64,000 nucleotides of DNA, from positions 10,788,001 through 10,852,000 of the forward strand of contig NW_025963780.1 of the NCBI RefSeq assembly GCF_023055435.1, in the 5' to 3' direction. A program made the position numbers and the translations under genes. Under the pieces are notes generated by a model. That model made no database searches. It was not told the origin of the DNA and saw only the letters and a program-made list of their open reading frames with translations. Below, piece after piece: positions 12,690 to 18,662 of the stretch. Origin of the DNA: Haliotis rufescens. Its lineage: Eukaryota. The first letter of the stretch is position 1. Each line of letters begins with the position of its first letter.

Positions 12690-15600
12690 ATGGTCATATT
12701 TTACATGTTGGGGGTGATGTTCCTTCACTCTGAGAGAGTACAAGCTGCTATTGTTTCCGAGAAGCTCTGTCTGAATTCTGCATACAGACTGGTCAACTCT
12801 GTCACAACAGACAACTTCTCGGGCATCCAGTCTGTGACAACATCGTCCCGTGCTGAATGTCTTGCTCGGTGTGTCGGCGTCAAGCCCTGCACCGGCGTAG
12901 TCTACTGCCCCGACGACGACGTCTGTTACCTGATGGCAACGACAGCTGAACCAGGCAGCGTCCCCCGCGTCACGTGTCAACTGTTTGTGGAGGATGATGC
13001 TAGGATGCAGGTGAGATAATTACCCTTTTCATAACCACAGCTCCTGATAACACAGAGTTTTGATACTGGCAGGTTTCCGGTCCATTGTTTGTCATTCTTG
13101 TCGCCATATTAAACATTCTTGGAACACAAACCCGAAGTAACCGAGTTAGAATAGTTCCTTACACTCTGTTGTCTGAGTGGCGACTCAGTGGATATGGTGT
13201 CAGGCTTGGTGACTTGGTTGATCAATCCCTGGATTGTCTCGCCCAGACCCGGTCATTTATTATTCCAACATGGAGGAGGTTTTAAAGAGTCTTTTCTTAA
13301 TTTGACAGCGGTTAGTTGGAATTGGCAGTTGATTTCATCCACAAGTTGCAGTGATATATGACAGAAAGAGACAAATGTGCTCTTTAGAATGAATGATGTT
13401 TTAAGGAGAGAAAAGCGTAACTGACTGAGGAAGACTGACATTAATTATATGTAAACGTACATAAAGTCCTATCACTATATAATATGAAATCTAAGTAGGC
13501 TCACTATGCTGTAAGTTAAACACAACACGGTGTTGAACCATCCTCACGCACTGGCCTGGGGGCAAGTGTAGAATGTAAACGTTCATAACAATCAGTACAA
13601 TTTTACAGAATTGTATAGACGCACATTCCGAATACAACGGTAACAGCTGCAGTACTCAGAAGGTAAAGATCCGGGTTAGAATAGGTTTTCATTAACCTAT
13701 TCTTGTCGTAAGAGGCGACTAACGGGATCGGGAGGTCAGGCTCGAGGACTGAGTTGATGCATGTCGTCGTATCCCAATTGCGTTTGTGACTGGATCACCA
13801 ATCAGTGACTGGATTGTCTGGTCCAGACCCGATTATTTACAGACCGCCGTCATTTAGCTGGAATATTGCTGAGTGCGGAGTTAAACAACAAACAAACAAA
13901 CAAACAGAAGGTAAAAGGGAATATTTTGGACCATCTTAACTGGGCATCATCTCATGCAGGGAACGACTGATGTTCTGACTTCGGAAGCCATCACATCATC
14001 CACAACGGAAGCCATGACATCCTCTACAACGGAAGTCATGACATCCTCCACAATGGAAGCCATCACATCGTCCACGACAGAAGCCATCACATCCTCCACA
14101 ACGGAAGCCATGACATCCTCCACAACGGAAGTAATGATATCGTCCACAACAGAAGACAGCACATCCTCCTCAACGGAAGCCAGCACATCCTCCACAATGG
14201 AAGCCAGCACATCCTCAACAACGGAAGCCATCACATCATCCACAACGAAAGCCATCACATCGTCCACAACGGAAGCCAGCACATCGTCCACATCGGAAGC
14301 TAGCACATCATCCACAACGGAAGCCATCACATCATCCACAACGGAAGTCATGACATCCTCCACAACGGAAGCCAGCACATCGTCCACTACGGAAGCCAGC
14401 ACATCGTCCACAACGGAAGCCAACACATCCTCGACAACGGAAGCCATGACATCCTCCACAACAGAAGCCATGACATCGGCCACAACGGAAGCTATCACGT
14501 CATCCACAAAAGTCGCCATGACACTCTCCACAACGGAAGCCATCACATCGTCCGCAAGGGAAGCCAGCACATCGTCCACAACGGAAGCCAGCACATCGTC
14601 CACATCGAAAGCTAGCACATCATCCACAACGGAAGCCATCACATCCTCCACAACGGAAGTCATGACATCCTCCACAACGGAAGCCATCACATCGTCCACT
14701 ACGGAAGCCAGCACATCGTCCACAACGGAAACCAACACATCCTCCACAGCGGAAGCCATGACATACTCCACAACAGAAGCCATCCCATCCTCCACAACAG
14801 AAGCCATCACATCCTCCACAACGGAAGCCATCACATCATCCACAACGAAAGCCATCACATCGTCCACAACGGAAGCCAGCACATCGTCCACATCGGAAGC
14901 TAGCACATCATCCACAACGGAAGCCATCACATCATCCACAACGGAAGTCATGACATCCTCCACAACAGAAGCCATGACATCGGCCACAACGGAAGCTATC
15001 ACGTCATCCACAACAGTCGCCATGACACTCTCCACAACAGAAGCCATCACATCGTCCGCAAGGGAAGCCAGCACATCGTCCACAACGGAAGCCATCACAT
15101 CATCCACAACAGTCGCCAGGACACCCTCTACAACGGAAGTCATGAAATCCTTCACAACGGAAGCCATCACATCCTCCACAACGGAAGCTAGAACATCCTC
15201 CACAACGGAAGCCATCACATCCTCCACAACAGAAGCCAGGACACCCTCCACAACGGAAGTCATCACATCCTCCACAATGGAAGTCATCACACCGTCCACA
15301 ACAGAAGCCATCACATCCTCCACAACGGAAGCCAGCACATCCTCCACAACGGAAGCCATGACATCCTTCACAAAAGAAGCCATCACATCCTCCACAACGG
15401 AAGCCAACACATCCTCCACAACGGAAGCCATCACATCATCCACAACGGAAGTCATGATATCGTCCACAACGGAAGCCAGCACATCCTCCACAATGGAAGC
15501 CAGCACATCCTCAACAACGGAATCCATCACATCATCCACAACGGAATCCATCACATCGTCCACAACGGAAGCCAGCACATCGTCCACAACGGAAGCCAGC

Positions 15601-18600
15601 ACATCGTCCACAACGGAAGCCATCACATCATCCACAACAGTCGCCAGGACACCCTCCACAACGGAAGTCATGACATCCTTCACAACAGAAGCCATCACAT
15701 CCTCCACAACGGAAGCTAGAACATCCTCCACAACGGAAGCCATCACATCATCCACAACAGAAGCCAGGACACCCTCCACAACGGAAGTCATCACATCCTC
15801 CACAATGGAAGTCATCACACCGTCCAAAACAGAAGCCATCACATCCTCCACAACGGAAGCCAGCACATCCTCCACAACGGAAGCCATGACATCCTTCACA
15901 AAAGAAGCCATCACATCCTCCACAACGGAAGCCATTACATCCTCCACAACGAAAGCCATGACATCATCCACAACGGAAGTCATGATATCGTCCACAACGG
16001 AAGCCAGCACATCCTCCACAATGGAAGCCAGCACATCCTCAACAACGGAATCCATCACATCATCCACAACGGAATCCATCACATCGTCCACAACGGAAGC
16101 CAGCACATTGTCCACATCGGAAGCTAGCACATCGTCCACAACGGAAGTCATGACATCCTCCACAACGGAAGCCATGACATCCTCCACAACAGAAGCCATG
16201 ACATCGACCACAACGGAAGCTATCACGTCATCCACAACAGTCGCCATGACACTCTCCACAACGGAAGCCATCACATCGTCCGCAAGGGAAGCCATCATAT
16301 CGTCCACAACGGAAGCCATCACATCCTCCAAAACGGGAGCCATCACATCATCCACAACGGAAGCCAGCACATACTCAACAACGGAAGCCAGCACATCGTC
16401 CACAACGGAAGCCATCACATCATCCACAATAGTCGCCATGACACCCTCCACAACGGAAGTCATGACATCGTCCACAATGGAAGCCATCACATCCTCCACA
16501 ACGGAAGCCATCACATCCTCCACAACGGAAGCCATGACATCCTCCACAAAAGAAGCCATCAAATCATCCACAACGGAAGCCATCACATCATCCACAACGG
16601 AAGTCATGATATCGTCCACAACAGAAGACAGCACATCCTACACAACGGAAGCCAGCACATCCTCCACAATGGAAGCCAGCACATCCTCGACAACGGAATC
16701 CATCACATCATCCACAACGGAATCCATCACATCGTCCACAACGGAAGCCAGCACATCGTCAACATCGGAAGCTAGCACATCGTCCACAACGGAAGCCAGC
16801 ACATCCTCCACAACGGAAGTCATGACATCCTCCACAACGGAAGCCATGACATCCTCCACAACAGAAGCCATGACATCGACCACAACGGAAGCTATCACGT
16901 CATCCACAACAGTCGCCATGACACTCTCCACAACGGAAGCCATCACATCGTCCACAACAGTCGCCATGACACCCTCCACAACGGAAGCCATGACATCCTC
17001 CACAAAAGAAGCCATCAAATCATCCACAACGGAAGCCATCACATCATCCACAACAGAAGACATCACATCCTACACAACGGAAGCCAGCACATCCTCCACA
17101 ATGGAAGCCAGCACATCCTCGACAACGGAATCCATCACATCATCCACAACGGAAGCCATCACATCGTCCACAACAGTCGCCATGACACCCTCCACAACGG
17201 AATCCATCACATCATCCACAACGGAAGCCATCACATCCTCCACAACAGTCGCCATGACATCCTCCACAACGCAAGCCATCACATCATCCACAACAGTCGC
17301 CATGACACCCTCCACAACGGAATCCATCACATCATCCACAACGGAAGCCATCACATCCTCCACAACAGTCGCCATGACATCCTCCACAACGCAAGCCATC
17401 ACATCATCCACAACAGTCGCCATGACACCCTCCACAACGGAAGCCATCACATCATCCACAACGGAAGTCATGACATCCTCCACAATTGAAGCCAGCACAT
17501 CCTCAACAACGGAAGCCATCACATCCTCCACAACGGAAGCCATCACATCATCCACAACGGAAGCCATTACATCATCACTTATGCAAACATCGACAACGAC
17601 TAAAGCAGCTATGATAGTTTGTGAAAATGGCGGAACGTCAGACGGCGCAACCTGTAGTTGTGTCTCCTCCACTACCGGAACACGCTGTGAAACTCGGATT
17701 GAAGGTAATGAGTCTTATCAATATACAAGAACACCATGGTTTAAAACGTCGCCCGGGATCGATTCCCAACATGATTCTAAAGTAAACCACATTCTTGCTG
17801 TCCCCACAGTCATATTGCAGGAGTATTGCTAAAATAGTACAAACCCTCACTCACTCCATTTAATGTGTGTATTTCACACAGCCTGACCGTAAATATTCAT
17901 ACTTCTATAAAACAGGCATCCATTTTTTTTAAATTGTATGATTTGCCACCTGTCTCAAAACACAACACTACCCATCCTGCTATGTTGTTATATTGTCACG
18001 TGATTTGGGTTTCAGACTGTCAGGACATTGGTCAGTACATATCAACAACCCCCGGCACGTACTCAGTCTGGCCGGACACCTCCGAGGCGCCGTTTGACAT
18101 AGAGTGCTCGGATTTTGATACCTTTACTACCATGATGATGTTCAGGGACAAAACCATCAGTGGCTGCGAGGCGACACCCGTGACGTACCTCGACGTGCCC
18201 TGGGCCGACTACAAGTCTGGGTTCAACAACTCCGACTGCTACATGTGGCTTGGCCTAGAGAAGATACACGCTCTGACCAGTGTCCGATCTTATGACCTTT
18301 ACGTGTCCTTGAAGAAATTTGATACCACTCCCGGTCAAGTGTCTTACAGCGCCTTCTCTGTCGGTGACGAGGCCTCGGAGTATCAACTGTCGGTCTCAGG
18401 GTTCACTGGGGATGGCGTTTTTGGAGACCGCTTCAACCTCGGGGACCCAGCTAGAACCCTGGATGGGAGTCACTTCTGTGCCAAGGACCACTGCAACAAT
18501 TCAGTCTACCCGTGTGCCGAGTGGCATAGAGGAGCCTGGTGGAGCATGCTGGATGACTGTCAGACGAATCCTCACCACAGATATGAAATTGCCTGGGTTC

Positions 18601-18662
18601 TTGCTGATAACGTTAGCACTGAAGATTGCAAAAGTATCTACATGGTCATAGTGCCCGTCTAA
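12690..18662 (+). CDS. Secreted PAN/Apple - mucin stalk - EGF - fibrinogen-related domain (FReD) protein, ~1570 aa; exons 12690-13010, 13960-17704, 18016-18662
   Basis: Signal-peptide-like [22 protein letters not shown]-like CLARC..C..CYL; ~1200 aa of TTEAITSS repeats; [27 protein letters not shown]; FReD motifs [42 protein letters not shown] junctions in matching phases (0, then G|AC = Asp). Confidence 0.9.
13668..13904 (+). mobile_element. SINE-like family A, same insertion as 1316-1544 (predates the gene duplication)
   Basis: Same position in intron 1 and same TSD cagaaggtaaa (13657-13667 / 13905-13915). Confidence 0.85.
13981..17577 (+). repeat. Coding 24-bp tandem repeat (~150 units, mucin domain of copy 2)
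   Basis: Unit ~acaacggaagccatcacatcctcc, open reading frame throughout. Confidence 0.95.

Follow-up and report, generated by a model that had tools for sequence, protein, structure and literature searches.

A PAN-EGF-FReD gene of Haliotis rufescens with a predicted 1197-residue mucin-like stalk

An abalone gene that appears to place two recognition-type domains at opposite ends of a very long Ser/Thr-rich repeat raises the questions of whether such a protein can be made at all, and what it would be for. The gene lies on the forward strand at 12690-18662 of a 64,000-nt stretch of the Haliotis rufescens assembly (contig NW_025963780.1, positions 10,788,001 to 10,852,000), hereafter the window, and all coordinates below are window positions. 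A first-pass annotation made from the letters alone had described a three-exon gene combining a PAN/Apple domain, a giant acidic stalk, an EGF module and a fibrinogen-related domain (FReD), and had proposed that its product cross-links microbes to mucus as a double-headed lectin. We read the gene as encoding a secreted, O-glycosylated, two-headed network protein of mucus or a surface coat, whose FReD would bind a non-canonical ligand, and we consider this reading about evenly poised between right and wrong.

Gene structure and the repeat stalk

The reading frame is intact across 12690-18662: three GT-AG-bounded exons join, as had been described, into 4713 nt encoding 1570 aa, with no frameshift and a sole stop that is the terminal one. 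The order of domains is a predicted signal peptide, PAN, a 1197-aa Ser/Thr stalk, a four-Cys EGF-like module and a FReD. Exon 1 (12690-13010, 321 nt) carries the ATG, the predicted signal peptide (aa 1-19) and a PAN/Apple domain with 7 Cys, and ends in phase 0. After intron 1 (13011-13959, 949 nt, GT..AG), exon 2 (13960-17704, 3745 nt) runs from phase 0 to phase 1 through a conserved short start, GTTDVLTSE, the mucin stalk, and the EGF-like module at 17620-17703, whose four Cys follow the pattern CENGG...C-C...GTRC. Intron 2 (17705-18015, 311 nt, GT..AG) precedes exon 3 (18016-18662, 647 nt including the stop), which encodes the whole FReD of 214 aa with 9 Cys, a remodelled Ca2+ loop and a shortened ligand loop. 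The cysteines of the PAN, EGF-like module and FReD are all retained in this frame.

Two of the three domains named in the first-pass annotation are recovered by Pfam above the cut-off. PAN_1 matches exon 1 at E=1e-7 (32.1 bits against a curated cut-off of 21.4), and Fibrinogen_C matches exon 3 at E=1.6e-22 (80.9 bits against 22), which places that domain in the FReD superfamily. The EGF assignment falls short, with a weak hEGF match to the exon-2 module of E=0.051 and 14.5 bits against a cut-off of 29.3, and 4 Cys rather than 6. An atlas search with exon 2 returned EGF clusters alone, at scores of 0.75-0.79, below 0.8, and the best match of the PAN exon to solved structures had E=0.029. The N-terminus of the protein is predicted to be a signal peptide from an 11-residue hydrophobic stretch (within residues 1-12) followed by VQA/A, and a highest 19-residue hydropathy of 1.09 indicates no transmembrane segment in the 1570 aa, both in agreement with the earlier description. 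The mature chain is computed at 159 kDa with a pI of 4.05.

The stalk is encoded by a tandem array at 13982-17573 with a period of 24 nt, 149.7 copies, 83% matches and 0% indels, which translates into about 150 acidic units of 8 aa, T-E-A-[I/M/S]-T-S-S-T. Over its 1197 residues (aa 115-1311), close to the 1200 first estimated, it is 61% Ser+Thr (T 34%, S 27%, E 11%, A 10%, P 1%), with 0.3% Asp, 0.1% Gly, about one Glu per repeat and a net charge of -110. In composition this is mucin-like, in the broad sense of a long Ser/Thr-rich tandem-repeat domain, though with Pro at only 1%.

Is the stalk coding? The array contains 0 stops in the coding frame versus 42 and 8 in the remaining frames, and its differences fall 46/121/196 by codon position. 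On its own the open frame is weak evidence, because stops arise from only 281 of the 10728 single-base changes possible in the array (2.6%); we rejected it as proof of selection. The structure of the gene, as read from sequence, argues for a coding stalk more strongly than the open frame does. None of the 211 AG dinucleotides in exon 2 lies in phase 0 (166 are in phase 1 and 45 in phase 2), and by the filter used none of them is a polypyrimidine-backed acceptor. Splicing exon 1 directly to exon 3 shifts the frame, and the single donor-like site inside the array, at 14131 in phase 0, has no in-frame partner in a scan that scored consensus-like GT donors. Because no exon-2 AG is in phase with exon 1, an in-frame transcript from PAN to FReD almost has to carry the stalk, and the two cannot be joined without it by consensus-like splicing. 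These counts bear on the alternative that the stalk is spliced out, or that PAN and FReD sit on different transcripts, so that the product is an ordinary short PAN-EGF-FReD. The close relatives of the gene are all short, and the H. rubra proteins P0002 and P0004 swap first exons, so that splicing in the family is flexible, but against the phase and acceptor counts we regard this alternative as highly improbable.

At its 3' end, exon 2 aligns with the H. rubra P0002 linker-EGF segment over 26 of 37 residues (E=5e-15), and at its 5' end it has a weak match to GSSDVL (E=12). A 622-nt contig from sequencing run X15, whose kind is unrecorded, spans 17534-18157 unspliced, running from the repeat tail through the EGF-like module and intron 2 to the start of the FReD with 10 differing letters and 2 gaps. 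Since this contig carries all of these elements in one piece, the array-EGF-FReD junction is not an assembly artefact.

Short-linker relatives and the FReD head

The window gene has relatives in a multi-copy Haliotis subfamily consisting of a signal, PAN, a Ser/Thr linker, a four-Cys EGF and a nine-Cys FReD with FCAKDHC, the FReDs of which are 71-84% identical to that of the window. Examples, under automatic RefSeq names, are XP_046569279.1 (H. rubra), XP_071108751.1 (H. cracherodii), XP_046370991.2 (H. rufescens) and XP_067650538.1 (H. asinina). The subfamily is defined from our own alignment rather than from a publication, by a PAN with a YC motif, a four-Cys EGF, a nine-Cys FReD and FCA[KN]D[HRT]C; the window gene has all of these and clusters with three H. 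cracherodii/H. rufescens FReDs at support 100/100. A family profile search gave 16 matches among 5543, 14 of them named Haliotis proteins, a PAN search gave 1 match among 49 candidates, and a FReD search over proteins of 376-2000 aa gave 3 matches among 358 candidates, all Haliotis. Across all libraries 4808 FReDs were found at E up to 0.001, and among the best 150 of these only P0006, P0007 and P0009, again all Haliotis, match in one long stretch (>45%). Within the searched data the subfamily appears to be confined to Haliotis.

The relatives share the remaining architecture of the window gene and differ from it in the linker, measured from the last PAN Cys to the first EGF Cys: 1231 aa in the window gene against 15-60 aa. 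Among the 14 of 16 members that fit the EGF pattern, the linker is 15 aa in nine, 24 and 33 aa in one each, and 60 aa in two, one of the 14 being mis-measured owing to an extra Cys. The 60-aa linker of H. rubra P0002 contains TTTEEMTPST, which resembles the repeat unit, and expansion of such a linker motif would thus be the simplest origin of the stalk. We consider the stalk likely to be a recent expansion, by tandem duplication, of the relatives' short linker, roughly 20-80-fold.

Affinities differ along the gene. Exon 1 is 62-64% identical to the exon-1 region of H. rubra P0002, and the EGF-like module is 69-77% identical to H. rubra P0002 and H. asinina P0006 versus 40-57% to the three H. 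cracherodii/H. rufescens proteins. In the FReD (18018-18659), residues 41-214 share 93% identity with those three proteins and residues 1-40 only 35-45%. This step in identity, along with the affinity of the EGF, suggests that exon 3 underwent gene conversion. For PAN the signals disagree: the tree groups it with P0002/P0006 (88/84), yet identity is higher to P0005/P0164. The H. rubra isoforms P0002 (X2) and P0004 (X1) join different signal-plus-PAN first exons to the same linker-EGF-FReD exons, a pattern of interchangeable N-terminal heads.

Whether the FReD can act as a lectin depends on its ligand sites. A structure model has the full FReD fold (predicted local distance difference test, pLDDT, 85.2; predicted template modelling score, pTM, 0.83) and matches M-ficolin with Z 22.6 and a root-mean-square deviation (rmsd) of 2.7 over 195 aligned residues, and tachylectin 5A with Z 22.1, further FReDs scoring within 2 Z units. 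FIBCD1 holds Ca2+ via Asp393 and Asp395 and the acetyl group via Tyr405, His415, Tyr431, Ala432 and Trp443, residues that are conserved in TL5A and in L- and M-ficolin save for Trp to Tyr at 443 (PMC3908420). We mapped these positions onto the window FReD via sequence alignment, not superposed coordinates. Asp393 and Asp395 align with Cys159 and Asn161, and the interval Asp157-Cys166 holds no further acidic residue. In the pocket, Tyr405 becomes His170 and His415 becomes Gln182, position 443 has no aromatic, and the loop of Tyr431 and Ala432 is deleted, with Cys181-Trp193 spanning 11 residues versus 22; the Cys401-Cys414 disulfide pair is retained as Cys166/Cys181. Both ligands of the two-Asp Ca2+ site and all five residues of the S1 acetyl pocket are thus changed or deleted. 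The canonical motif F[ST][TA]xDxDxD is found in 0 of 22 subfamily proteins versus 110 of the 151 other proteins compared. A ficolin-type lectin mechanism is unlikely on these alignments, and the label of lectin, given at first by analogy with ficolins and tachylectins, is not supported. Since the canonical Ca2+ and acetyl sites are replaced in the subfamily, its automatic ficolin-, tachylectin- and angiopoietin-like labels mislead.

The divergent C-terminus of the FReD that had been singled out earlier (HFCAKDHCN, with an extra Cys) is present, but it is common to the whole subfamily: 22 of the 173 proteins compared have this divergence, one of them the window fragment P0165. We rejected a private lesion on this ground. 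As the feature is subfamily-wide and the nine FReD Cys are invariant among the covering rows of alignment A4, it is a selected family trait and not decay.

The reading proposed first, a pattern-recognition lectin that is double-headed on a mucin tether and captures microbes in the mucus layer, has the fold in its favor, closest to M-ficolin and tachylectin 5A although tied with other FReDs. It also draws on reports that molluscan FReDs are inducible and bacteria-agglutinating (PMC8878817), and on the multi-copy nature of the subfamily, with signs of sequence exchange as often seen in immune families. An abalone FREP survey with Vibrio challenge is also cited in the literature (PMC11741071). 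Set against this are the altered FIBCD1-type Ca2+ ligands and acetyl pocket, although binding could take place at another site, the missing canonical motif, and the lack of a collagen or coiled coil to give avidity. We consider a microbe tether unlikely, with a real minority chance.

In the preferred reading of a two-headed mucus or surface-coat network protein, the short Ser/Thr/Glu linker of a PAN-EGF-FReD gene would have been inflated by tandem duplication into a stalk of ~1200 residues. The signal peptide would route the product into the secretory path, and ~730 Ser/Thr would be O-glycosylated, giving together with the net charge a hydrated, extended chain. Extended mucin chains have a spacing of 0.25-0.36 nm per residue, at which 1197 residues would reach ~300-430 nm. 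Held so far apart, PAN and FReD would presumably bind partners independently, bridging rather than clustering. The FReD ligand would be something other than Ca2+-dependent N-acetyl groups, probably shared with the short paralogues and either a protein or another glycan, and extra disulfides would stabilise the P-domain. The stalk would keep the binding function of the family inside the gel layer. The gene offers a clear instance of "mucinisation" in which a repeat expanded, and its short-linker relatives can serve as controls. The genus is farmed and partly endangered, and its mucus faces Vibrio and other pathogens.

A more far-reaching version, which we regard as a long shot, is that abalones, independently of vWD/cystine-knot mucins, made a polymer-forming mucin out of an immune-type scaffold by expansion within one exon of a 35-40 kDa PAN-EGF-FReD, and that an odd Cys at each end joins chains of 0.3-0.4 micrometres end to end. 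If so, the FReD, with a remodelled pocket that is free of Ca2+, would establish a new ligand class. The Cys counts are indeed odd, 7 in PAN and 9 in the FReD, and one Cys may be unpaired at each end; equally it could be buried. In three distant subfamily members a tenth FReD Cys at position 193 could pair with Cys204, and PAN Cys27 is missing in two members. The distant members P0009, P0170, P0171 and P0159 have additional Cys both at the C-terminus and close to FReD position 193, which makes them useful for working out the disulfides. In a model of the short relative P0005 (pTM 0.62, with pLDDT <50 for the linker and residues 1-56) the packing of PAN and FReD is not readable.

An alternative to free mucus is the shell matrix, periostracum, egg jelly or extracellular matrix, in which the protein would act as an acidic structural glycoprotein; the low pI would suit this, as would a Glu in nearly every repeat, which could bind Ca2+. 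The FReD matches include tenascins and MFAP4, which are matrix proteins. With only 11% Glu and 0.3% Asp, however, the stalk does not resemble the Asp-rich proteins of shell; a search of the Haliotis shell-proteome literature pointed to no such protein among the listings examined. A structural glycoprotein of this kind seems very unlikely.

The sister copy and the surrounding locus

A tandem paralogue lies upstream on the same strand at 344-4790. It has a PAN exon (344-664), an intron and, from 1600 on, a mucin exon that has an array of its own and a frameshift near 4375; EGF and FReD are absent, and it would encode a 1061-aa PAN-mucin. A match of 4809-5002 to 19582-19757 suggests that its EGF and FReD were lost through deletion. 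The two copies are 98.4% identical in exon 1, 94.6% in the intron and 88% upstream. Their arrays share 1 exact unit (61 versus 70 distinct units) despite the similarity of exon 1 and intron, which indicates that arrays turn over fast. The paralogue's PAN exon shares its phase with exon 1 in the intact copy and could act as an alternative first exon.

The window gene may likewise be a silent or decaying copy, a duplicated gene that has lost useful expression and in which the array grew by unequal crossing-over. Several observations weigh against a working network protein or fit this alternative. The frameshifted and truncated neighbor shows that copies at this locus decay, each of the 5 differences that separate the two PAN exons alters the amino acid, and the end branch of the window FReD is the longest of its four-member clade (0.14 versus 0.02-0.05). 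The 24-nt unit preserves the frame automatically, and few single changes in it make stops. Distinct repeat variants comprise 11 synonymous and 36 non-synonymous changes versus 21 and 50 possible single changes, so there is no amino-acid purifying signal. Four sequencing runs were compared over 17520-19100, from the 3' end of exon 2 onward, and the three that we guessed to be RNA contain no 17704/18016 joint; their contigs (depth 2-5.5) reach exon 3 in part, along with some of the 3' flank and of an intron-2 interspersed repeat, and the uncovered parts are uninformative. In the search for sequencing runs, 19 of the 24 listed share part of the sequence, none shares half of its words, and no RNA run is listed. 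The one database protein found for the locus is P0165, a 139-aa fragment equal to FReD residues 76-214, and the full-length form is absent from the 376-2000-aa FReD search, which is a weak blank. Because only this fragment was found, such genes may be under-annotated. The silent-copy alternative has to contend with a frame of 4713 nt free of stops and frameshifts, canonical introns, the retained cysteines of all three domains, and an exon 1 that is more alike between the copies than are the intron and upstream sequence. We think it unlikely.

Other features of the window are incidental to the gene. Just 3' of its stop codon, 18789-18954 (+) is a duplicated FReD-exon fragment, a partial domain 84% identical to 18271-18436. 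A Tc1/mariner-type transposase remnant lies between the copies at 5718-6625 on the reverse strand (DDE_3 E=6.9e-12, HTH_Tnp_Tc3_2 E=4.7e-11), and the database model P0001 includes a fused DDE fragment similar to it. Exon-like pieces of an ML-domain gene at ~20870-21005, 22520-22745 and 23900-24110 (reverse strand; Pfam E=0.0054, below cut-off) are convergent with the FReD gene. Farther along, an exon at ~53240-53350 (reverse strand) has a kinase-like translation, presumably resembling the N-lobe of an OSR1/SPAK-type kinase, and 56844-58731 is a 45-nt array of 42 copies without indels, in which frames of 676 and 644 aa between stops lie open on the two strands, without a credible Pfam match.

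Comparison with known systems

The first-pass annotation did not recognise the architecture as that of a named family. For the full form with its long stalk this stands: a PAN-mucin-EGF-FReD protein is not described in the literature searched, a scope that leaves subscription papers and supplements outside. It does not stand for the frame, since PAN-linker-EGF-FReD is a Haliotis subfamily, and PAN-FReDs and Ser/Thr-rich FReDs are known elsewhere. PAN is combined with FReD in Biomphalaria FREP1, four C. gigas genes and some Lottia FReDs, and the pairing of EGF and FBG defines the FReMs (PMC7588048); connectors of molluscan FREPs are also said to include PAN-1 and EGF, citing an abalone survey (PMC11741071). 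The accessible portions of this literature report no mucin stalk in molluscan PAN-FReDs or FREPs, and interceding regions of FREPs reach up to 320 aa. Gastropod FREPs require one or two IgSF domains (PMC7588048), whereas the three exons of the window gene have no Ig match at E up to 1. FReMs have an EGF-like region before the FBG; in the window gene the module at that place has four Cys and scores below the Pfam cut-off.

Among the best 150 FReD matches, of which 88 were scanned with Pfam (22 + 66) and all 150 were screened for Ser/Thr-rich runs, three PAN-FReDs come from outside Haliotis: P0024 of Patiria miniata, P0057 of Owenia (PAN-FReD) and P0141 of Mytilus (PAN-Sushi-FReD). The Patiria protein (XP_038065619.1) resembles the window gene in its signal-like N-terminus, PAN, Thr-rich tandem (PTTNQ)n and FReD. 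It differs in a repeat of ~80 aa, two FReDs with a canonical Ca2+ loop and the lack of an EGF, and is a database model only.

Mucus proteins of other animals offer a precedent. In Cornu aspersum mucus, CAMP1 and CAMP3 have a Ser/Thr-rich O-glycosylated N-terminal region, nearly identical among CAMPs, and a C-terminal fibrinogen-like domain, and fibrinogen-, ficolin- and tenascin-like glycoproteins make up ~15% of adhesive and protective snail mucus (PMC10475054). CAMP3 is <40 kDa, the accessible text on it does not mention PAN or EGF, and the likeness to the window protein is one of description, not sequence. Ser/Thr-rich FReD proteins occur in rotifers (PMC8878817), fibrinogen is listed among snail trail-mucus proteins (PMC11940790), and cross-linking by multi-domain lectin-like proteins has been proposed for limpet mucus (PMC7333891).

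Ficolins, tachylectin 5A and FIBCD1 have the FReD fold in common with the window protein (Z 21-23, rmsd 2.5-3.0), which lacks their Ca2+ ligands and acetyl pocket. Ficolins have a collagen-like Gly-X-Y stalk, whereas the window stalk has 0.1% Gly and, in keeping with the first-pass annotation, no Pfam collagen match; it likewise has no coiled coil or transmembrane segment. Gel-forming mucins of the MUC2/MUC5/MUC6 type are built on vWD-C8-TIL assemblies and a C-terminal cystine knot. They share with the window protein a long Ser/Thr tandem domain between Cys-rich ends and predicted secretion, and the window protein may work like a mucin. It is not a gel-forming mucin by its domains: vWD, C8, TIL and cystine knot have no Pfam match in the three exons, and Pro is scarce in the stalk. 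Judged by domain content, the window gene is a member of the FReD superfamily and of the Haliotis subfamily, and falls outside the ficolins, the FREPs and the vWD-type mucins. It does not overturn established biology; a stalk-free PAN-EGF-FReD frame already exists in Haliotis, and the new element, as far as these comparisons reach, is the inflation of its linker into a mucin.

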